From the NCBI GenBank assembly GCA_964234715.1, contig OZ174287.1: a stretch of DNA of 64,000 nucleotides. One strand, written 5' to 3'. The position numbers and the translations under genes are program-made. This DNA is from Podarcis melisellensis (taxonomy: Eukaryota). The notes beneath the pieces were generated by a model, which was not told where the DNA came from, did not search any database, and saw nothing but the letters and a program-made list of their open reading frames with translations. This document shows positions 13,886-64,000 of the stretch, in pieces (positions within the stretch are counted from its first letter, which is position 1; each line of letters opens with the position of its first letter).

Positions 13886-37917
<24,032 letters not shown>

Positions 37918-42490: not shown

Positions 42491-43376
42491 TACGGTGCTT
42501 GAGTTCCCTAAATCTATATTCCTTCCTTCTCAGACTTGAAAAAAAAATATTCTTGGGCTCAGAAGCAAGTTGAATTCAAGTGACCACTAGGCGTATCTAA
42601 ATATATATATGTGTGTGTATGTATTCACTTATCTGATAATAACAGAAGGATGCATTTCCTTCTGGAAGACCCTCTTTACTCACAAACCTGCAGTTGTATA
42701 TGTGCTCCATCTCAGCCTCTGCAGGTCTGCCCTGTTCTGCCTCTGAAACATTCAACCCTCTTACTTTACAAGGAATTCCATCGCCTAGCAACTGGGCTCT
42801 GGAAGCATTCCCATGGCAACTGCATCCCTGGCAGTTGGCTACCAATTGAAGGAGCATCTTGGTTGCATCCTACCCTCACAGGACGGGGCTTGAAAGGGAA
42901 GGAAGGGTCTGATGGTTTGTATCTTAACAGAGCTCAAGGGCCTTTTATGCATAGAAAATGGGAGGTGTGAAGGTGAAGGCCCCTGAATAGGAAGGGCACT
43001 TGCCACTAAGTCACATTGTGTTCCCAGTTGCTCAATTTCCAGGCCACCACCTTCGTACTCGGTGAGAGAGTCCTGTCCATTAAGTGTGGGCTGCAGAGGC
43101 ATTGATAGAGGCTGCCTCCCCCCAAAAAATTCCCCTTTTCCTTTTTTTAAAAAAACAACTTTGTTTACAGGTCAGCTGGGAATGGTGTAAAGTATAGCAT
43201 TGGTAAGACCCCAGGCACTTGCCCTCTTTTTAATTTGCTCAGAGGCAGTACTTTGTAGTAGCATCTGAGAATTTGTGTCATTGGGATGTAGCTACCTTGC
43301 TGAGCACACGAGGTCGCAGGTTCAATCCCTCACAAATCCAGGTAGGACTTGCAGAAGTTATGCCCTGCCTGAAACC

Positions 43377-44345
43377 CCAGATGCCCCAGATACACTGACC
43401 AGATGTCTGGAAGCTGTGGCTGGATGGTTACGTGGGAGCCGGTTGAAGTTAAATCCTTCTAAGACAGAGGTCCTCTGGCTGGGACGGAGCGATATGGGAC
43501 TGAGGGGGCAACTGCCATCTCTTGCGGGGGTGCAATTAGTGCCAACATCGTCCGTTAAGAGTTTGGGTGTAATCTTCGATAACTCCCTCTCTATGGAGGC
43601 GCAGATTACAGCTATAACAAAGGCGGCATTTTTCCATCTCCGCCAAGCTAAGCAGTTGGCTCCTTATCTCTCTCGCCCTGACCTAGCCACTGTGATCCAC
43701 GCGACGGTCACCTCCAGACTGGATTATTGTAACTCGCTCTACGTGGGGCTGCCCTTGAGACTGACCCAGAAACTCCAGCGGGTGCAGAACGCCGCGGCGA
43801 GACTCCTTACGGGGTCTTCACTGCGAGATCATATCCATCCGGTATTATACCAGCTGCACTGGCTCCCGGTGGAGTACAGGATCAGGTTTAAGGTGCTGGT
43901 TCTCACCTTTAAAGCCCTATACGGCCTAGGACCCTCGTACCTACGGGACCGCCTCTCCTGGTATGTCCCACAGAGAAATTTACGGTCTGCAAATAAAAAC
44001 ATCCTAAAGATCCTAGGCCACAGAGAGGTTAGGCTGGCCTCAACCAGAGCCAGGCCCTTCTGGTGGAACACTCTGTCAGAAGAGACTAGGGCCCTGCGGG
44101 ACCTGACATCTTTCCGCAGGGCCTGCAAGACAGAGCTGTTCCACCAGGCCTTCGGTCAGGGCGCAGCCTGACCCCCCTCCTCTGGCAATCGGCAATCTAC
44201 ACAGAATTTGCTGGATGGTTGCCATTAATTTGATTTTAATTTGATTTACTTAATTTTTATAATGAATGTTTTTAGAATGTCGGATTATTTGATTGTTAGC
44301 CGCCCTGAGCCCAGCTCCGGCTGGGGAGGGCGGGATATAAATAAA

Positions 44346-53894: not shown

Positions 53895-55034
53895 TGTTAC
53901 GGAAAATCTGGGTGCGTATTTACCCTGCCACCCAGCCAATCGGACCAAAGTCCGTGGGTCTTTGCGGAAGAAAAAGAAGCTCAGCCGGACGCAGGAGCAA
54001 AGTACGAAGATCCAAGTTTATTGGCCAACAGGTTCAAGACGAGATTTGAACCCCGAGAATGGGGCGACATAAACTTTTAAAAGTTCCCTCCAAGTCCCAG
54101 AATACAGTGCATGAAACGTCATGAATTCATTATGGGAAGGTTGGGTTTCATGGATTTCATCATGAATACATTACACACGTCACGAATATCTCAGAGAAGA
54201 GGTGGGGTTACACTAATTAACATTTGAGATAAGGGAGGGGGAAATATGTAGAGCGAGAGATACACATAGGTAAACATTTATCAAGTACCGGTGGTGGCAG
54301 GACAAAGGGCCAGAGATATGCATCGTCTGCCACCTGGTATTGCCCGGAGGAAGGGTTATGGGAGGTGATCCGACAGGATTAAGAAGTTCCTGTGTACGTG
54401 CCCTGTCGCTCTGGGGATTATGGAAGTAGGGATCGTATCATGGAGTGCGAAGGGAGCTGAGTTGAATGACACCAAGAGCAAAGAAATCGGAGTTATGGTT
54501 GATTTTATGTCAATTTCTAAAGGTTTCCTATGCCTTCTGACCTATTCTGTATTGGTGATCAAAAGCGGAAACAAAATGGACACATTGTAGCAAGAATGGA
54601 TACATTTTGACAGTTTTACGAGGTCTCTGGTTTCGGATCCATTGTTCTCACCGTGGGGGGCCGTCAGCAGCTTGTCAGTAGGTTCAATGAGGCGTGCAAG
54701 AGCTCCCTGAGCTAGCTCCTGCAGGACGAATGCATGGTTGTGATTGGCTAAGACGCAGCCATAGGAATAAGCGGAGATACAGGAGCGCCCGGTCTACTCG
54801 TTCTAAGTATGGAGCGCAAATAGCCATAGGAAGAGATAGGAGAATATATTCATATATTTGAGCTTATTTCGCTCGTGGAAGAAAGAAGGGAAAGAGGGGT
54901 TTTCTGGGAGAAGTGTGGTGCTTGTGCAACTGTGAGGGGGACTGGCGGTGGATACTCTTGAGGTCATCGCCTCGGTCGTTCACGGGAGAGGGGGGGGAAG
55001 AGGAGGTACCCCCCCCCGTTCCCGATCCGTATCA
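53895..55034 (-). repeat. 3' LTR of the ERV (~1140 bp)
   Basis: On - strand starts TGATACGGA directly after the PPT and ends TCCGTAACA (8/9 inverted repeat, TG...CA). TATA-like TTTTAAAA at 54075-54082; AATAAA at 54017-54022. Confidence 0.85.
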
Positions 55035-55109: not shown

Positions 55110-57134
55110 CTAAATTTCAGTGATCTCGTATTCCCCTTCCCCCAGATGCCTCATCTGTACATAGTCTGGGAAGGTGGTATGTTGGGAACGGGAATAGGCT
55201 CGGAGAGAGAAGGAGTTAGGCGGGGAGGAATGGCGGGGGCGAAGGAGGGAACAGCAGGGATTAATACAGTGCACAGTACAACATAAAACAGACACAGAAA
55301 GCACAGCGGTCAAGATGATGAGCAGCATGACTTTCAGTAATTGTCGGAGCCATCCCAACTTAGGTAACCATCCCCACAAGTCCACATCGGATAGTCCCTC
55401 ATGTTGGATATCGTGTAGTCTCCCTGCTAACTCGTGAATATTGTTCAAATGTCCAGTTATATTTAAGGTCTGGTCCGTCACGTATGTGCAGCACTCGGTG
55501 CCTATTAGGGCACAGGTGCCTCCTTGACTGGACAAGAGGAAGTCCGTTGCAATCCTCGTCTGTAAGCTCAACTGCCTTACCTCGGATAGTTCCGACATGA
55601 GAGAGTCCGTGATCTGGGTCGCCTCCTGCATAAACTTAAGGAGGATGTCAGTGAGCCGAAGGATATCCACATGGTTTGAACCGGCGCCGTAGGCAGGGAA
55701 AAGCGCTCGGCCTACGGTCTCCCCATTTGCAGCAACGTCTGACAGGTCTGACAGCTCCCTTTGTTCCCTCTTATTCCGTTGTCTTCCAGGGGGTAGGTGT
55801 GGAACTATCCTTATTCCGGGGACAATGTAGCCGACGAAGCAGGCTCCGGACATGTGTGGGCTCACCCATGTATATGCGCGGTGTCCGCACACCCAGAATA
55901 GGCCGCTGAGGTAAGATTCCATTCTGCCTGAAGCAAAGGTTTGCAGCAGCATGGAGTCCGAAGGTCGGGGCTTCCAGTCGAAGGGGTGTCCGACGGCAGC
56001 GGCCCAGGCGACTGTGAGATTTGGAAAAGTCCGGGACTCCCTTGTGTTGGTGAAGGTGACCAGGCCAGTTGGCAGGATTTCGAGAGTGTTGGGACATGTA
56101 CTGGATCCAATGAAGGTTCCTTCTCCGGAGAAGCTGCGGCAAAGGGGCCCCTTCGTGGGGCCGGTGAGATAGAGATATTGATGTGTCAAGTTGAGGGCGG
56201 TTAGGTTCCAGGAAGTAACGTTTCCGGAGCGGAATTGTTCCAAGGTCACTGGCACTGGGACTAGTGGGAGGCTCTGCTGTAGGTGGCTAGGCGCGTGGGC
56301 GCAGATCCAGCAGTCCGGGTACGGTGCCTCCTTTGCCACCTGGCTGAGAAGTTTAATATAGGAGTTTCGCTCCCAGGATGAAAGGAGGTCTTCTCCCGGG
56401 AGTGCAGAGTCAGTGCCGAACTGTCGAGGTGCTGTGCCGACTGGGTGGAGTGGGTCGGTAGTGTTTAATAACCGCCTATCCCTGGCGATACCGCCGCATC
56501 TCAGGGGTCCGGCATGGTCCCATGAGGGGGGGCGCGAAGGGTGTATGGGATGGTGCCAACCTTCAAGATATTCAGCCCCTTTCCACTCATGAGTGACCCC
56601 TAGGTTCCATAAGCAGCAGAATCGCCGCAGGCAGAGTCCCTGGAGTTGAGGCTTCTGGGTTTCTGGGGTGGAGAGGAGACACTGGAACCCGAAAATCAAG
56701 TTTCCAGAGGGGTGGTTTGAGCCCGTGTAAGCGTGGGAGGCCCCTCCTACCTCGACTTCGGTCCAGTTCGGGTTTAGTGAAATCTCTCCGTTCGCGTAGA
56801 GAAGATAAGTCCCGTTTTGGCAGGTTAAGCGGTAAGAGGAGTGGTCAAGAGTGAGGGCCGCGGACCCGATACGGCGCAAGTCCTTGTTTCGGATGAAAAG
56901 TTCCCAGTATTCGTCGTTGGCGAGTCGGGGTACTAAAGAATGGCGCAGTAAGGTCCGAGACTCTGGAAGGCAGAAATCAAAGTCCCCCATTCGATCAGGG
57001 TTAGACCTCCCCGTCTCGACCTCATGATAGTCCAAGAAGTGATAGGCCGTTTGTAACCCCGTGCAGTGGTCTGATGATGTGGACTTGACCCAGGATAAGG
57101 CGGTGAGAAGAAGGACGGTGCAGGCCAAATCCAT
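55110..57134 (-). CDS. env: ERV Env, gamma-type covalent SU-TM (674 aa)
   Basis: Kozak ACCATGG; signal peptide; CWIC (56301-56312); furin site RNKR (55767-55778); ISD-like LQTRIATDFLLSSQGGT; CX6CC (CALIGTECC); TM helix; cytoplasmic YxxPhi (YVQM). Confidence 0.95.
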   Translation of the reverse strand: MDLACTVLLLTALSWVKSTSSDHCTGLQTAYHFLDYHEVETGRSNPDRMGDFDFCLPESRTLLRHSLVPRLANDEYWELFIRNKDLRRIGSAALTLDHSSYRLTCQNGTYLLYANGEISLNPNWTEVEVGGASHAYTGSNHPSGNLIFGFQCLLSTPETQKPQLQGLCLRRFCCLWNLGVTHEWKGAEYLEGWHHPIHPSRPPSWDHAGPLRCGGIARDRRLLNTTDPLHPVGTAPRQFGTDSALPGEDLLSSWERNSYIKLLSQVAKEAPYPDCWICAHAPSHLQQSLPLVPVPVTLEQFRSGNVTSWNLTALNLTHQYLYLTGPTKGPLCRSFSGEGTFIGSSTCPNTLEILPTGLVTFTNTRESRTFPNLTVAWAAAVGHPFDWKPRPSDSMLLQTFASGRMESYLSGLFWVCGHRAYTWVSPHMSGACFVGYIVPGIRIVPHLPPGRQRNKREQRELSDLSDVAANGETVGRALFPAYGAGSNHVDILRLTDILLKFMQEATQITDSLMSELSEVRQLSLQTRIATDFLLSSQGGTCALIGTECCTYVTDQTLNITGHLNNIHELAGRLHDIQHEGLSDVDLWGWLPKLGWLRQLLKVMLLIILTAVLSVSVLCCTVHCINPCCSLLRPRHSSPPNSFSLRAYSRSQHTTFPDYVQMRHLGEGEYEITEI

Positions 57135-57212
57135 GGTCTGGATGCGTGTGGGGAGAGCACAAATAGTCAGACGAGCGAAGGTGTTCAGATAAAGCGAGGC
57201 TGTAAAGTGCAG

Positions 57213-57550
57213 CTATCAGATGAACTGTCAAACGAGGCTGTCAAACGAGGTAAGCTGTCAACGGAGCTGTCAAATGAAGCTGTCAGATGAACTGTCAAAC
57301 GAGGCTGTCAAACGAAGCAAGCTGTCAACGGAGCTGTCGAATGAAGCTGTCAGATGAACTGTCAAACGAGGCTGTTAACGAGGCTGTCAAAGGAAGCGAG
57401 CTGTCAACGGAGCTGTCAAATGAAGCTGTCAGATGAACTGTCAAACGAGGCTGTTAACGAGGCTGTCAAAGGAAGCGAGCTGTCAACGGAGCTGTCAAAT
57501 GAAGCTGTCAGATGAACTGTCAAACGAGGCTGTTAAACGCGGCTGTCACC
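57213..57550. repeat. Higher-order tandem array of 12-17-bp CTGTCA/TGACAG monomers between pol and env
   Basis: Higher-order units start at 57213, 57280, 57347, 57426, 57505 (periods 67, 67, 79, 79); ~26 monomers, 21 with perfect CTGTCA. Confidence 0.95.
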
Positions 57551-60500
57551 GCGTCTGAAACGTAGCTTGATGGTGTTGGTATCCGGGATGATTTCGGACG
57601 TCCAGTTGGATGTCGTGGTGTCAGGTCCGGTCTGTTGGGCCCGACTTTGGCCCCGATCTGCTGGTCCGGTCTGTTGAGCCCGACTTTGGCCCCGATCTGC
57701 TGGTCCGGTCTGTTGAGCCCGACTTTGGCCCCGATCTGCTGGTCCGGTCTGTTGAGCCCGACTTTGGCCCCGATCTGCTGGTCCGGTCTGTTGATCGTCG
57801 TCGTCAATGTATGAGATCGGTGGAGTAGGTGGAGTCGAAAAGGTGAAGTCCTCGCCGTTGCTCTCTTCAGTCTCTTGTGGAGGGGGTGAGGACTTGCACC
57901 TAGTGTGATGTAACCAAGAATTCTTCTCACCTACTTTCACGGCGGTTGGCGATGTCAAGAGCACTTGGTAGGGGCCTTCCCACGCGGGTTGGAGTGGTTC
58001 CTTCTGGTAGACTTTGACGAGGATCCAGTCACCAGGGTGGAAGGAGTGGGCGTGGACGTCGATGGGCAGGTTCTGTCCCTCGATGGCCGCGTAGTGGTGG
58101 AGGCGCTGTAGTTGTGTCTGGAGCTGAATAACATAATTAGTAAGTTCTGCCTCCCCCAGCTCCAGTTCTGAAAGTGGGAATAGAGTGTTGTAGACGGGAG
58201 GAGGTCTCCCGAATAAAAGTTCGAATGGAGAGAGTTTCAAACGTCCGGTTGGGGCGCTGCGGATGTTATGAAGAACCAGTGGGAGTGCATTCACCCATTT
58301 TAGGCCAGTGAGCTCGCAAAGTTTGCCCAACTGTATTTTTATTTCCTGGTTCATACGCTCTACTTGGCCAGAGGATTGTGGGTGGTATGGAGTGTGGAGG
58401 TCCCATTTAATTTGGAGTGTTTTGGCCACTAATTGCACCACTTCCGCAGTAAAGTGGGTTCCCCTATCGCTATCTAAGCGGCGGGGTATGCCATAGCGGG
58501 GAATGATATCCTGTAGGAGGGCTCTGGCGACTACGGACGCGGTAGCTTTTCGGCAAGGGAATCCCTCCACCCACGAGGAGAATTGGTCCACTATAATCAA
58601 AGCATGTTTAAAGCCTTGGCATTGGGGCAGATCAATAAAATCAAGCTGCAAGTTCTCAAAAGGGACAAAGGCCCATGGTCTGGCTCCTGGTGGCCTCCTG
58701 GGTTCACGCTTGGGATTGAAGCGATGGCAAGTAATGCAATTCTTTGATGCTGCTGCTGCGGCGGCAGCTATCCCGGGTGCATACCAAGATCTAATGATAT
58801 GTTCCATTAATCTCCCTTTTCCCCAATGTGTCCGCTGATGAAGAATCCTCACTACTTTTGGAGTCCAGGCCTTTGGAAGGACGGTTCTGCCATCGGGGAG
58901 GACCCAGATGCCCTGTTGTTCGGTGGCACCTATCGATTCCCACATAGCCTTTTCATCCCCTGGGGCAGATTTGTAGATTTCCGTAAGGTCAAGGTCTGCT
59001 GGTAGTTGGAGGGCTTGAAACTCGGATTCATTGTTGGGGATGCGTAGGGCAGCCATCTGTGCGGCTTTGTCGGCTCGTCTGTTTCCTTTAGATACCGAGT
59101 CCCTGCCCTTGGTATGGGCTTTGCAGTGGACAACGGCTATAGCGGCCGGTAGATGGATCGCCGTGAGAAGTCGCTCAACTAGGGCGGCGTGCGAGATTTG
59201 AGACCCGGCGGCGGTTAAAAAACCTCTCTGGAGCCAAATTTGGCCGGTTGTATGCACCAGACCGAAACAGTATTTACTATCAGTATAGATGGTTATCCGC
59301 TTCCCTTCACCAATCTCGCAGGCACGCAGCAGCGCAATTAATTCGGCGGCTTGGGCACTGTACTGGGAGTTAATTGGGTTTGACTCTAGTACTTCGAAGT
59401 CGGAGACCACCGCATACCCAGTCTTCCTAACCCCGTCGATTACTTTAGAACTACCATCAGTATATAGTATTAGGTCCGGGTTCTCCAGGGGGAGATGATC
59501 TAAATCTTCACGGGGCTTTTCGGCTTGCCGGACTATAGTGGTGCAGTCATGATGTGGGGTGCCATCATCAGGAAGGGGTAGCAGGGTAGCGGGGTTTAGG
59601 GAGTTGACACGTTTAATGGTGACATTGGTTGGGGTTAGTAGGAGGGCTTCGTATCGGTTGAGGCGGGAGTTTGAGAAATGGTGGCATCCTTTTAAGGTTA
59701 AGAGGGTTGAGACTGAATGGGGAACGTGAAGGGTGATTTCGTGGCCCAGGACTGTTTCTTGGGCTTTCTCGAGGAGGACAGCAGCGGCTGCAATGGCTCT
59801 CAGGCAACTGACAGCCCCTTTAGCAGTGTTGTCGAGTTGCAGACTATAATATGCTACTGGCCTCTCTTGGTCGCGAAAGGGTTGGGTTAGGACACCGGAG
59901 GCTACCCCCATTTGCTCGTGGATGAAGAGGTTGAAAGGGATTCGGTAGTCGGGTAATCCTAGGGCAGGGGCAGATCTGAGTTCCCGTTTTAGTCGTTCGA
60001 AAGAGTTGTAAGCTTCTTTTTCCCAGACCAAGGTGTCTGGGTGGTCCTGACGCGTCATAACAGTTAAGGGCTTCGTTATTTCGCTGTAACCAGCGATCCA
60101 TGCTCGGCAGAAGCCGGCCATGCCAAGGAAGCCGCGCAACTGTCGTTTTGTTTTTGGGAGAGGGATTTTAGTAACTGCCTCAATCCTGTCAGTGGCTAGA
60201 CTTCGGGTCCCTACTCCCAAGATGTGTCCCAGATACTTGACTTCTTGTTTACAATATTGGAGTTTCTTTGGAGACACCTTATGTCCTTTCTTTGCTAATT
60301 CTGATAGGAGGTGTTTAGTGTCTATCTTACACGCCTCCTCACTGGTAGAACACAATAAAATATCATCCACGTAGAGAAGCAAGGTGGAGCTAGCCGGTAG
60401 GTGGATGTCCTCTAAGTCCTGATGTAATACGGCCGAAAAAATTGCGGGTGACTCTACATAGCCTTGGGGCAGTCTGGTCCAAGTTAGTTGGCCGGGTCCC

Positions 60501-61411
60501 CAGGTAAATGCAAAAAGGAATTGGCTGGCCGGGTCCAAGGGTATACTGAAGAAGGCGGAACACAGATCTGCGGCGGAGTACCACGTCGTCCCTGCTGGAA
60601 TTGCGTTTAGGAGGGAGTTCGGGTTGCCCACTACCGGGTGTCTAGGTATTACGAATTGGTTCACTAATCTCAAGTCCTGTACAAAGCGGTACCGTATAGG
60701 TGCCCCCTCCTTTGCGGGCTTCTTGACCGGGAGAACTGGGGTATTACAGGGTGAAGCGCACGAGACTAGGATCCCCTTTTCGAGGAAGTCCTCAATCATG
60801 GGTGTTAGGCCTTCTATGGCTTCTTTGGGCAGAGGGTATTGCTTGGTGCACGGGAAGGGCAAGTCACTTCGGTAGGTGATCTTGACTGGAGTAGCAGAGA
60901 GTAAGAGTCCGACTGAGGTTGATTCAGTGCCCCATAGGGAGGGGGGCAATTCGTTTTCCAGGTCCAAAGGGAGTTCAGGAAACTGTCTGTCCGCTTTGGA
61001 TTCCTGGACGATACCTTGGAACATGGGAATAGAGTCCCCTGGCATATGTAGGTAAATGCCATCCGAGGAGCATTTTATGGTGGCGTTAAGTTTGCAGAGG
61101 AGGTCTCTGCCAAGGAGATTGACAGGGCTGCTTGTTAGGAGGAAAGTGTGTTCCGCCAGTAATGGTCCGAGGGTGACTTTGGCCGGTCGCGAGAGCGGAC
61201 AAGTGCGGGGTATCCCATCCAGTCCCATTACTTTCTTGGTTACTGTCCCTGGTTGCAGGTGACTGTCGGTTAGGGTGGAATAGGTAGCCCCTGTGTCTAG
61301 TAGACATTGATAGGGGTGGCCGTCAATCTCGATAGTGCAGACCGGGTCCTCAGGTGACAATGCAAGAACAGGGCAGATGGTTTGGGTCTGACTGGGATCC
61401 CCTTCTAATTG
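57533..61411 (-). CDS. pol: ERV Pro-Pol (protease, RT, RNase H, integrase), in frame with gag across a single TGA
   Basis: LLDTGA protease; QDLR, LPQG, YVDD RT; YTDGS..AELIAL..YTDSKY RNase H; HHCC, D-D-E (LDFI, SDRG, VERMN) and WEGPY integrase. No stop between 61411 and TAA at 57535-57533. Confidence 0.97.
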   Translation of the reverse strand, partial: QLEGDPSQTQTICPVLALSPEDPVCTIEIDGHPYQCLLDTGATYSTLTDSHLQPGTVTKKVMGLDGIPRTCPLSRPAKVTLGPLLAEHTFLLTSSPVNLLGRDLLCKLNATIKCSSDGIYLHMPGDSIPMFQGIVQESKADRQFPELPLDLENELPPSLWGTESTSVGLLLSATPVKITYRSDLPFPCTKQYPLPKEAIEGLTPMIEDFLEKGILVSCASPCNTPVLPVKKPAKEGAPIRYRFVQDLRLVNQFVIPRHPVVGNPNSLLNAIPAGTTWYSAADLCSAFFSIPLDPASQFLFAFTWGPGQLTWTRLPQGYVESPAIFSAVLHQDLEDIHLPASSTLLLYVDDILLCSTSEEACKIDTKHLLSELAKKGHKVSPKKLQYCKQEVKYLGHILGVGTRSLATDRIEAVTKIPLPKTKRQLRGFLGMAGFCRAWIAGYSEITKPLTVMTRQDHPDTLVWEKEAYNSFERLKRELRSAPALGLPDYRIPFNLFIHEQMGVASGVLTQPFRDQERPVAYYSLQLDNTAKGAVSCLRAIAAAAVLLEKAQETVLGHEITLHVPHSVSTLLTLKGCHHFSNSRLNRYEALLLTPTNVTIKRVNSLNPATLLPLPDDGTPHHDCTTIVRQAEKPREDLDHLPLENPDLILYTDGSSKVIDGVRKTGYAVVSDFEVLESNPINSQYSAQAAELIALLRACEIGEGKRITIYTDSKYCFGLVHTTGQIWLQRGFLTAAGSQISHAALVERLLTAIHLPAAIAVVHCKAHTKGRDSVSKGNRRADKAAQMAALRIPNNESEFQALQLPADLDLTEIYKSAPGDEKAMWESIGATEQQGIWVLPDGRTVLPKAWTPKVVRILHQRTHWGKGRLMEHIIRSWYAPGIAAAAAAASKNCITCHRFNPKREPRRPPGARPWAFVPFENLQLDFIDLPQCQGFKHALIIVDQFSSWVEGFPCRKATASVVARALLQDIIPRYGIPRRLDSDRGTHFTAEVVQLVAKTLQIKWDLHTPYHPQSSGQVERMNQEIKIQLGKLCELTGLKWVNALPLVLHNIRSAPTGRLKLSPFELLFGRPPPVYNTLFPLSELELGEAELTNYVIQLQTQLQRLHHYAAIEGQNLPIDVHAHSFHPGDWILVKVYQKEPLQPAWEGPYQVLLTSPTAVKVGEKNSWLHHTRCKSSPPPQETEESNGEDFTFSTPPTPPISYIDDDDQQTGPADRGQSRAQQTGPADRGQSRAQQTGPADRGQSRAQQTGPADRGQSRAQQTGPDTTTSNWTSEIIPDTNTIKLRFRRGDSRV
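57624..57793 (-). repeat. 39-bp coding tandem repeat (x4.4) in integrase C-terminus
   Basis: Units start 57624, 57663, 57702, 57741, 57780; encodes (QQTGPADRGQSRA)x4. Confidence 0.97.
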
Positions 61412-63427
61412 TCAATAAGTGTCCTGATCATCGGGAGGCGGTTGGTTTGGGGGGTGCAAGGGAGGAGCGGTAGCGTTCACCCAAGGGTGGGCAGACTGGT
61501 CTATGGTTGGCATTTGGGTTCGGGGTCCCGATTGGGGTCGAGTTTGAGGTATCGGGTTCGAGGGCGTTGGTGGAGCATAAGCCGCTGGTTGGTGGTTGGT
61601 GTAGCCTGGGGTTACGTTGGGTTGCGGGGGGAAAGGTGGTTGGCTGGTTCTAGCAGGGAAGGACTTGGGTTCTTGCCCCCCGTAGGGTGGCGCATTTAGG
61701 TAAGGGCAGAATCTTTTTATGTGTCCTTCTTCCTGGCAGTAGTAGCACCCTCCAGTCCCCGGTCCCCATTGCCTATAGGGGTTTGGGGGTCCTCCTCCCC
61801 GGACCCCCTTTCCTCGGTTGAGACCTCTACCTCGGTTAGGGCCATAAGTGGTTTCCATACTTAGGGCCAAGATCTGTTCGACTTCGGATTTTGTCTCCTT
61901 TTTCTTTCTCTCATCTCGAGAGTTGTAGATGGATTTCGCAATGGACAAGATTTCATTTACACTCTTTCCATCATATCCAATTTGAAGATTCAGGGCTTTC
62001 CTAATGTCTTGGCAGGCCTGATCCTTGAAGAAACCTTTAACGATCACTTCATGTTGCGGATTCTCGGGGTCGATTCCTCCCCATGTTTTGATGGCGGAGA
62101 CTAATCTAGTATAATAATCAGAAGGGTGTTCGTTTGGCCCCTGCATTACCGTTTGGACTTTGGTCCAATTAACGGTGCGTTGTCCGGCTGCCTTTACGCC
62201 ATCCAGAATGGCTTTCTTAAATAGTTTCAAGCACCAGATCCCATTGGTCGTGTTATAATCCCATGTAGGTTCTACTCGAAGGGATTGTGCGGTGAGCGCC
62301 TGCAATCCTTGGGGCCGTCCCCTCTGGTAGTCGGGTGATTCTATAGCTTCCCCGGCTTTAGCCAGAATGTCCGCCTTCTCTGCCTCGTTGAAGAGGGCAT
62401 TCAGAAGGACGTGGACGTCCGCCCAGGTAGGATTGTGGGTGGAAAAGATTGCGCTGATCTGGCGGTGACATTTGTCCGGATCGTCCCTCAGGGAGGGCAT
62501 CTGGTTGGACCAAGTTACGAGGTCCGAAGTATAAAAGGGATGATGCGTATACACCATTCGTGGGGGTCCATCAGGTGAGAGAGGTGGGATCGGCAAAGCC
62601 CTTAGGGGCATCTGGATCGCTGTAGAGCTCACAGTAGAGCTCACTTGGTCAGAAGGTCCTGGGATCTCTTTGTCATGGTTCAGGGGCTCTGCTGTAAGCT
62701 CACAAGGCTCGGAGGGGAGATCCCAATTTCTGTTCGGGACAGGATCCTCAAGGGTGTTGTGGAGCGTTGAGGAAGGGGTTTTAGCTTTGGCCTGCCCGGG
62801 GTCTTTGGTTTTAGTCTGTCCAGAGTCCTTAGTTTTAGCCTGCCCAAGGTCTTTCTGGTCCTTTTTGGCTTGCAGCCTTGTGACTCTTCTGCTGCCTTGA
62901 GCCCCTTCCTCCCCCCCCTCTTCATCGCTACTCGAACCACTGTCAGACGACGGTGGTGGCGGTGGTCCTTGGTAGTAAAAGGGGACCAGGGCCTGCTGTA
63001 TATCCTCGTCTTCATAAGGGGGGGGCATTTGCTGTCGACCGGGATTCAATATAGGTAGCTGGTAAGAAGTTGTTCCCCTTGGGGCTTGGAGCACTCTCCT
63101 TACGGCCTCAAAGGTAGCCAGGTATTCCAACTGGCGGGGTTTTTCTTCTATTAAGTATTTCTTTAAGTAGTTCAAGCGCTCTTCATTAAACGAACCCCCT
63201 GCCGGCCAGCGTAGTTCGGGCTTGGCCGAGGCGGTACTGGCGGGCCAGATTTCAGAGCAGAGGTCCTCTAACTTTTCTTTGGATAATAGCTTGTGGCCAG
63301 GGATCGACTTCCAGTGCGTGATGACAAATTGGAGAGGAGAGTCGGGATCCTTCTGAGATCGGGATGGCTTTCTAGAAGCCTTCCTCCCAGAGTGAGCCCG
63401 CTCGTGTTTGGAAGCCTGGGTACCCAT
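61412..63427 (-). CDS. gag: ERV Gag polyprotein (671 aa)
   Basis: ATG in ACTATGG; MGTQAS myristoylation pattern (MGxxxS); PPPY late domain; MHR-like QGPNEHPSDYYTRL; one CX2CX4HX4C knuckle (CYYCQEEGHIKRFC); TGA stop. Confidence 0.95.
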   Translation of the reverse strand: MGTQASKHERAHSGRKASRKPSRSQKDPDSPLQFVITHWKSIPGHKLLSKEKLEDLCSEIWPASTASAKPELRWPAGGSFNEERLNYLKKYLIEEKPRQLEYLATFEAVRRVLQAPRGTTSYQLPILNPGRQQMPPPYEDEDIQQALVPFYYQGPPPPPSSDSGSSSDEEGGEEGAQGSRRVTRLQAKKDQKDLGQAKTKDSGQTKTKDPGQAKAKTPSSTLHNTLEDPVPNRNWDLPSEPCELTAEPLNHDKEIPGPSDQVSSTVSSTAIQMPLRALPIPPLSPDGPPRMVYTHHPFYTSDLVTWSNQMPSLRDDPDKCHRQISAIFSTHNPTWADVHVLLNALFNEAEKADILAKAGEAIESPDYQRGRPQGLQALTAQSLRVEPTWDYNTTNGIWCLKLFKKAILDGVKAAGQRTVNWTKVQTVMQGPNEHPSDYYTRLVSAIKTWGGIDPENPQHEVIVKGFFKDQACQDIRKALNLQIGYDGKSVNEILSIAKSIYNSRDERKKKETKSEVEQILALSMETTYGPNRGRGLNRGKGVRGGGPPNPYRQWGPGTGGCYYCQEEGHIKRFCPYLNAPPYGGQEPKSFPARTSQPPFPPQPNVTPGYTNHQPAAYAPPTPSNPIPQTRPQSGPRTQMPTIDQSAHPWVNATAPPLHPPNQPPPDDQDTY

Positions 63428-64000
63428 AGTATATTTCACGCGTGTCTAGACAGGAAAGAGGAGAGAGGGGTCGGTAAAGTTTGGTGGGCCTAGGGTGTTA
63501 CTCAATAAAGGGCTTGTAGTAACAGAGGGGTCTTCAGTCGCTTGGCAACTTCCTTAGAGAGTTTTTAAAGAGCTCTAGCTATCCGGTATTATTTCCTTTC
63601 CTATTTCCTTAACCAATAATCTGGGGTCCCTTTCCACTCTGCCAATCCTGCCCAATTCCTCATGGGCTATTCCCCCCCTGGCAACCTCCTACCTATCGAT
63701 TACTCTCAGGAAAAGGGGCCCTACTGAACGCCCGCGCCGTGCGGTGCCAGATCGGGTAGTCCCTGGATAGAACTTCGGGTCGAAAATCCCCCTTGCTTTC
63801 GGAAGCGGGCTTACAATACACGGGGTACGTAGCCCGACCGGTGCGGCTGGGATTGGGATAGAAAGCAAGACCACTTCCTGCCCCCTAGGAAGGACGCTCG
63901 GGAAGATCGGAAAAAGAGCTCCAACCCCTTGCTTTCAACTGGGATGCCCGTTGCGGAGAGTCGGCTATCTTTCAAGTCGGGTCACTCCGTCTTACCCTTC

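Follow-up and report, generated by a model that had tools for sequence, protein, structure and literature searches.

A copy-number-variable tandem array of TGACAG monomers between pol and env in a young gamma-like endogenous retrovirus of Podarcis melisellensis and in related loci

Here we describe a tandem array of short monomers lying between pol and env of an endogenous retrovirus (ERV) of the lizard Podarcis melisellensis. The provirus is found in a stretch of 64,000 nucleotides of contig OZ174287.1 (assembly GCA_964234715.1), referred to below as the window; coordinates are window positions unless a locus is named, and all features of the provirus are on the minus strand. Analysis of open reading frames (ORFs) and domains in the window finds gag, pro-pol and env all open. 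The gag ORF (61412..63427) encodes Gag_p30 and continues in frame into pol beyond a TGA stop whose next codons are CAA TTA. The intact pro-pol ORF (57533..61411) encodes protease (PR), reverse transcriptase (RT), RNase H and integrase (IN) with MLVIN_C, and its stop falls inside the second monomer of the array, whereas env (55110..57134), also intact, runs for 674 aa from its ATG and carries TLV_coat. The 3′ long terminal repeat (LTR; 53895..55034, 1,140 bp) is 100% identical to the 5′ LTR just beyond the window and a 4-bp target-site duplication is present; the insertion is therefore young. Gag_p30, the in-frame gag-pol arrangement across a stop, the IN C-terminus of murine leukemia virus (MLV) type, TLV_coat and the 4-bp duplication define it as a class I, gamma-like ERV, and the closest named proteins in a protein search are those of lacertid lizards (Podarcis, Zootoca).

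The array (57200..57554), which we propose to be a homotypic cluster of sites for TALE (three-amino-acid loop extension) factors, consists of 27 monomers of 12-17 nt with 21 exact TGACAG cores; the chance expectation, taken from the remainder of the window, is 0.23 TGACAG/CTGTCA per 355 nt. On the viral strand all 27 monomers end in YAG: 21 in TGACAG, three in TTAACAG, and one each in TCGACAG, TGATAG and TTTACAG. They are organized in two 79-nt higher-order units of six monomers each (57372..57529) and two 67-nt units of five monomers each (57238..57371); read in viral sense, the order is 79, 79, 67 and 67 nt. Between the end of the pol stop at 57533 and the env ATG at 57134-57132 there is a gap of 398 nt, and the first two monomers share sequence with the final codons of pol. 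An original prediction, made from the letters of the window, had counted ~26 monomers (26 within the limits it gave, 27 across 57554-57200), a 67/67/79/79-nt hierarchy, a gap of ~400 nt and first monomers lying over the end of pol; monomer splitting and direct measurement bear this description out. It had also noticed that no ATG separates the array from env. Indeed, there is none in the gap, and the ATG-free sense stretch extends over 1,000 nt, from 58134 to 57134; no other in the provirus is as long, the next being 402. This zone of integrase tail, array and env leader (57135..58131) would form all or part of the env mRNA 5′ leader. At the genomic scale, a triple-site pattern had 737 matches, versus 31 with a reversed control.

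DNA and protein genome searches, plus targeted fetches, gave 70 loci for analysis; the counts are lower bounds. A cluster of 3-52 TGACAG directly after the end of pol is present in 59 of the 63 loci with at least 60% IN-tail identity. The four misses are L069, decayed and with two sites, L073, which is truncated, L076, with four widely spaced sites, and L072. Six loci from families at 43-46% identity carry no array at all, and three sites are retained at L077, a further locus of low identity that is a damaged clade member. A tree was built from 41 distinct IN-tail peptides, leaving out L077, L085, L091 and L092; its array-bearing rows all fall within one clade of 36 rows with support 100/100. 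L072, which is array-less, stands on a long branch and its placement is unsure, so that array loss and sister status both fit. Furthermore, the monomers are also present in contigs from a second organism. Array length across paralogous proviruses, a comparison that had been suggested at the outset, is thus variable, and the earlier view of the array as functional and variable in copy number is supported by this range, by its retention and by the sparing of the core among amplified variants described below.

Some neighbors of this set are worth recording. A second ERV family, large, young and array-less, is represented by dozens of almost identical copies, in which a pol frame of 1,198 aa is open, at ~44% IN identity (e.g., L079, L081-L083). 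Seven near-identical defective copies, 0.4-1.4 Mb apart (L046-L052; G000:C19:23.4-28.3 Mb), probably derive from segmental duplication. Outside any ERV, a lone host minisatellite is made of four TATTGACAG units (L089 2935-2967; G000:C3:66.21 Mb).

Between the two main clades, just 23-38% of four-fold sites are identical (11/35, 7/31 and 15/40), that is, synonymous sites are near saturation. Against this background, and defining monomers by at most one mismatch from the core, 668 of the 729 monomers in 51 distinct arrays end in TGACAG. The context YTGACAGY surrounds 711 of 719 exact cores, and the C after the AG is conserved at 94%. The commonest junction, TTTGACAGCTC, accounts for 319 of these 719 cores, and flanks matching the extended TALE site are found at 485 (TTGACAGC) and 183 (CTGACAGC) of them. 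Spacers and higher-order period differ from one subfamily to another, with monomers mostly of 9-17 nt. We read this pattern as purifying selection on an 8-nt word whose spacing would be free. The 61 core variants include 26 that alter the G of TGA, 22 that alter the G of AG, 13 at other positions and none at the A of AG; 41 of them are G-to-A changes. The claim that variants keep YAG consequently holds for this copy (27/27) but not family-wide, the G of AG being lost 22 times and that of TGA 26 times. Among amplified monomer types (seen at least three times), the core takes four of 27 single substitutions versus 46% expected (binomial p=0.0008), and among rare types it takes 14 of 41 (p=0.21); both p-values are indicative, since the copies are related and the monomers were defined by closeness to the core.

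These data bear directly on the possibility of a neutral variable number tandem repeat (VNTR), seeded at the pol stop (TGA CAG), in which the core would be kept merely as microhomology for slippage. In 9 of 14 representatives the first core supplies the TGA with which pol ends, copy number spans the whole range of 3-52, the core variants are mostly G-to-A, and a second VNTR adjoins the array in the IN tail. The latter is a separate 39-nt coding repeat of 4.4 copies (57624..57794), whose copy number varies among paralogs and Podarcis proteins (P0004-P0006, P0013). Nevertheless, a neutral repeat hardly explains why the core is kept across near-saturated synonymous divergence when each subfamily has different spacers, of 3-11 nt or more, nor the core deficit among amplified variants, where core and spacer do not change at an equal rate. 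Direct repeats tend to be deleted in reverse transcription, and despite this expectation the array is kept at 59/63 loci. A neutral origin of the pattern is in our opinion improbable. A readthrough ladder was dropped, the monomers being in mixed frames, and so was a microRNA sponge, as we know of no seed that fits.

The explanation that best fits the conserved word is the first alternative of the original prediction: a homotypic cluster of predicted TALE sites (MEIS, PKNOX or TGIF) in proviral DNA, likely an internal enhancer, to which we give an even chance from the motif and its conservation. The TALE core TGACA(G) is present and conserved in the 668 monomers mentioned above, and YTGACAGY matches a TALE site. 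Exons encoding Homeobox_KN are present in the host genome, and we take these homeodomains to be of TGIF, MEIS and PKNOX type. TGIF1 recognizes TGACA, with contacts to eight base pairs, and its canonical oligonucleotide is ATTGACAGCTGTCAAT (PMC6158717). The Meis core is TGACAG, and a single site in the LTR of human immunodeficiency virus type 1 (HIV-1) captures Meis1 and PBX1 (PMC3505963). It has also been described that insect TGIFs activate spermatogenesis genes (PMC3494694).

An unrelated element shares the word. The triple-site scan also found a 2-kb retroposon (e.g., L088 3639-5690, G000:C4:84.08 Mb; L093-L146), unrelated to the ERV, with one ORF, a poly(A) signal, an A-rich tail and a target duplication, which we assume to be a non-autonomous L1-like element of HAL1 type; neither Pfam nor a protein atlas gave a family for its ORF. 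Some 150-200 nt before this ORF lies the palindrome TTGACAGCTGTCAA, found at 1,235 places genome-wide versus two in the control. Among 21 distinct copies retrieved by DNA similarity (83-97%), 19 have the whole palindrome, one has it broken and in one it is cut off at the edge of the stretch examined. In turn, 19 of 20 palindrome places sampled on one contig belong to the retroposon family at 70-80% identity, and a third, reverse-facing TGTCA outside the query is kept in all 19, in 14 of them as GCTGTCAAA. The poly(A) end was located 1.1-1.3 kb downstream of the palindrome in 10/10 cases checked. Judged from their arrangement, a palindrome and reverse sites would suit a binder of double-stranded DNA and not a splice signal.

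Several points weigh against the reading as a TALE-bound enhancer. The retroposon motif cluster could be an RNA hairpin, its first and third sites being complementary. In the ERV, the array sites are all in one orientation, and the spacers are 80% pyrimidine with 7% A on the RNA strand, a composition that a DNA site does not need. The A of AG, which is also the last base of TGACA, is unchanged in 729 monomers, and TAACAG, expected to lose TALE binding, has been amplified to 22 monomers. The contrast between rare and amplified types is by itself not significant (Fisher p=0.10), with monomers chosen by closeness to the core and copies that are related. Regarding the activating sign, the one retroviral TGACAG site to have been tested, that of the HIV-1 LTR, is repressive (PMC3505963), and human and other vertebrate TGIFs are repressors (PMC3494694).

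Should the TALE-site reading hold, the conserved YTGACAGY units would bind host MEIS, PKNOX or TGIF in proviral DNA, and the array would enhance proviral transcription from within the provirus, with a strength predicted to scale with copy number and the germ line as the probable relevant tissue. An activating effect seems slightly more plausible than a repressing one. Template slippage in reverse transcription would expand and contract the array, changing the dose. Because it would also be transcribed into the env leader, the array would be kept ATG-free and unstructured. As for env, it would likely be spliced to an acceptor in IN, upstream of the array, or, in some subfamilies, just downstream of it, and the last monomer may then double as branch point for the downstream acceptor. 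A more ambitious version, in which two unrelated classes of lacertid retroelements converged on the same TALE factor and the viral monomer is dual-coded, as a DNA factor site and as an RNA branch point/acceptor for env, is a speculative one to which we attach a rather low probability.

Since YTGAC is also a branch-point consensus, the TALE cluster and a splicing element can coexist. As an explanation on its own, the latter takes YTGAC as branch point and CAG as acceptor, the monomers being overlapping weak 3′ splice sites, or a decoy for U2/SF1, that would set the spliced:unspliced ratio of env; we consider it doubtful, at about one chance in four. It accounts for the pyrimidine-rich, A-poor spacers and for the amplification of TAACAG, an equally good branch point. 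At the corresponding position of the array-less L072 there is a canonical pyrimidine tract with CAG, and a long pyrimidine tract and CAG follow a monomer in L065/L018 and in L084/L085/L092. Moreover, 14 of 25 distinct array-to-env gaps (identical gaps merged; 17 loci without a nearby env frame dropped) contain no AG, and their acceptor would therefore lie within the array or upstream. The geometry would be workable, since AGs within 12-15 nt of the branch point can be bypassed (PMC1431707). Nevertheless, the changes to TGACAA/TGACAC (22) are about as common as those of the G of TGA (26), and no clade has adopted TAACAG or TGATAG as its main unit, though splice signals permit both. The TGA before and the C after the AG are conserved and an acceptor needs neither; acceptors favor G after the AG. 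In addition, the retroposon family keeps the same word facing the other way.

It also speaks against acceptors in the array that, in this copy, a second AG precedes 23 of the 27 array AGs by 10-11 nt. The AG-free zones of the array AGs measure 10-15 nt with pyrimidine fractions of 0.47-0.71, as opposed to 60 nt and 0.76 for the CAG ending at 57138; over 90% of human acceptors have no AG in the preceding 12 nt (PMC1431707). The 57138 CAG, 3 nt before the env ATG and preceded by a pyrimidine tract and by CTGAC 29 nt upstream (A at 57167), makes 57138..57199 the best candidate for a classical env acceptor in this copy, presumably used in this subfamily. A different location is suggested by the end of pol: of 14 array-bearing representatives, 12 are devoid of ATG over its last 420-570 nt (the other two have one and three), versus 2.2-3.7 expected from synonymous shuffles, a test in which the start of the stretch was chosen after the data were seen and the controls are weak: among array-less loci, L072, a decayed copy, has seven ATGs, L079 three, and L080, with a shorter tail, none. 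As the IN tail and the gap are ATG-free, these data suggest an env acceptor inside IN, upstream of the array, which would leave the array in the env 5′ leader. The bank of env 3′ splice sites favored by the original prediction is consequently weakened, by the frequent AG-loss variants, the conserved C after AG, the better acceptor at 57138 and the ATG-poor IN tail, and what speaks for it is that many relatives lack an AG after the array.

A low-confidence upstream candidate inside IN (58118..58142) has TACTAAT followed by CAG at 58124 and 58118, in the near clade only. TACTAAY was rejected as a family-wide acceptor: the distant clade is without it and has ATGs 79-85 nt downstream. No AG is universal across the IN tail, the best being present in 19/21. 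For the donor, the leader offers a candidate GTAAGA at 63990..63995, and inspection of the sequence gives a second candidate, GTGAGT, ~215 nt past the end of the window. Junctions were searched in contigs of the second organism from 6 of 12 runs (X1, X2, X3, X6, X7, X8), whose RNA status is a guess; among the joints listed (15 of 30, plus another 15) there was no donor-to-acceptor joint, which is evidence neither for nor against any acceptor. Some contig joints skip parts of the array, for which shorter alleles or a collapsed assembly may be responsible. At L021 2050-2078, by the AG at window position 58079, a contig breaks off; this may reflect either a branch due to splicing or a single-nucleotide difference between paralogs, and was left unused as evidence.

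If the array acted as RNA, a further possibility is a single-stranded platform, UGACAGC repeats in the env leader or genomic RNA binding a host RNA-binding protein with effects on splicing enhancement, export or translation. The strictly sense orientation of the sites directly before the env ATG agrees with it, as does the lack of structure of the tract, which is less structured than its shuffles (z=+1.80; 95/100 shuffles fold equally well or better). The contigs of the second organism span the end of pol, the array and the start of env, which attests presence only. However, no named RNA-binding protein was found for the exact octamer, the tract is not structured like a constitutive transport element (CTE), and the palindromic and reverse sites of the retroposon would be left unexplained unless they form a separate hairpin; this role appears quite unlikely. 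The same fold statistic, with no stable stem-loop, rules out a structured export element of the CTE or RNA transport element (RTE) type.

How does this compare with known systems? PBX1/PREP1 are said, in work attributed to Chao et al. in 2003, to take part in MLV transcription. LTR enhancer direct repeats and mouse L1 5′ untranslated region monomers are copy-number-variable tandem units with transcription-factor sites, but they lie in the promoter or U3 and measure 70-200 nt, whereas the array units are of 9-17 nt, with one site each, internal and transcribed. The MLV env splice acceptor is inside pol, which the ATG-free IN-to-env stretch of the array provirus would fit likewise; MLV pol and env, however, overlap, with no intergenic array. 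The negative regulator of splicing of Rous sarcoma virus and CTE/RTE are internal cis-elements that balance spliced and unspliced RNA without being tandem arrays, and CTE/RTE are structured, unlike the tract described here. The Meis/PBX TGACAG site of the HIV-1 5′ LTR (PMC3505963) shares core word and TALE factors on a provirus, but there the sites are single and in the LTR, in contrast to 3-52 tandem internal sites with spacer turnover. Tandem repeats between pol and env, reportedly with longer, uniform units, are also a feature of a non-mammalian retrovirus; it uses UGA readthrough (PMC13517186). That TALE factors control retroviral LTRs, and that retroelements can carry regulatory monomers in tandem, is already known. 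The literature searched, which included few subscription papers, describes no TGACAG pol-env array and no such retroposon palindrome, and to our knowledge no internal array was known before in which the sites are single and the spacers free.

In simple retroviruses, the LTR is generally regarded as the seat of transcriptional control. A tandem array of variable copy number in the interior of the genome, with one site per unit and kept across near-saturated divergence, would represent a new retroviral cis-regulatory architecture, and its range of site numbers would constitute a natural dose series for homotypic clusters or for multi-acceptor splicing. Young insertions would also bring strong clusters of MEIS/PKNOX/TGIF sites close to host genes. 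The palindrome of the retroposon, as a convergent case, points to a single host factor on which lizard retroelements would depend.

Other traits were also noted. Three copies, with both clades represented, have TGA as the stop between gag and pol, and the next codons are CAA TTA or CAA CTA (window 61406-61414, L148 3178-3189, L149 2667-2678). Gammaretroviral readthrough uses UAG in a UAGGGA-type context, and the type I context of tobacco mosaic virus (TMV) is UAG CAA UUA (PMC13517186); by its letters the stop context here would resemble TMV type I rather than the gammaretroviral one. Membership of the genus Gammaretrovirus sensu stricto was ruled out on this stop in the three copies. At L022 (428-1436) the leader is long, ~1 kb. 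The primer-binding site of that locus looks to us like one for tRNA-Lys, which, together with such a leader, we would hold unusual in a gamma-like element. Two reverse-facing CTGTCAG sites lie at the start of the env TM (55740-55756), with 11 nt complementary to an array junction.

Elsewhere in the window, on the plus strand, an open frame of 767 aa (26172-28475) has no Pfam match and resembles a TAO kinase 2 exon, and the region 43269-44171, also without a Pfam match, is one that we take to be a C-terminal fragment of a LINE reverse transcriptase.
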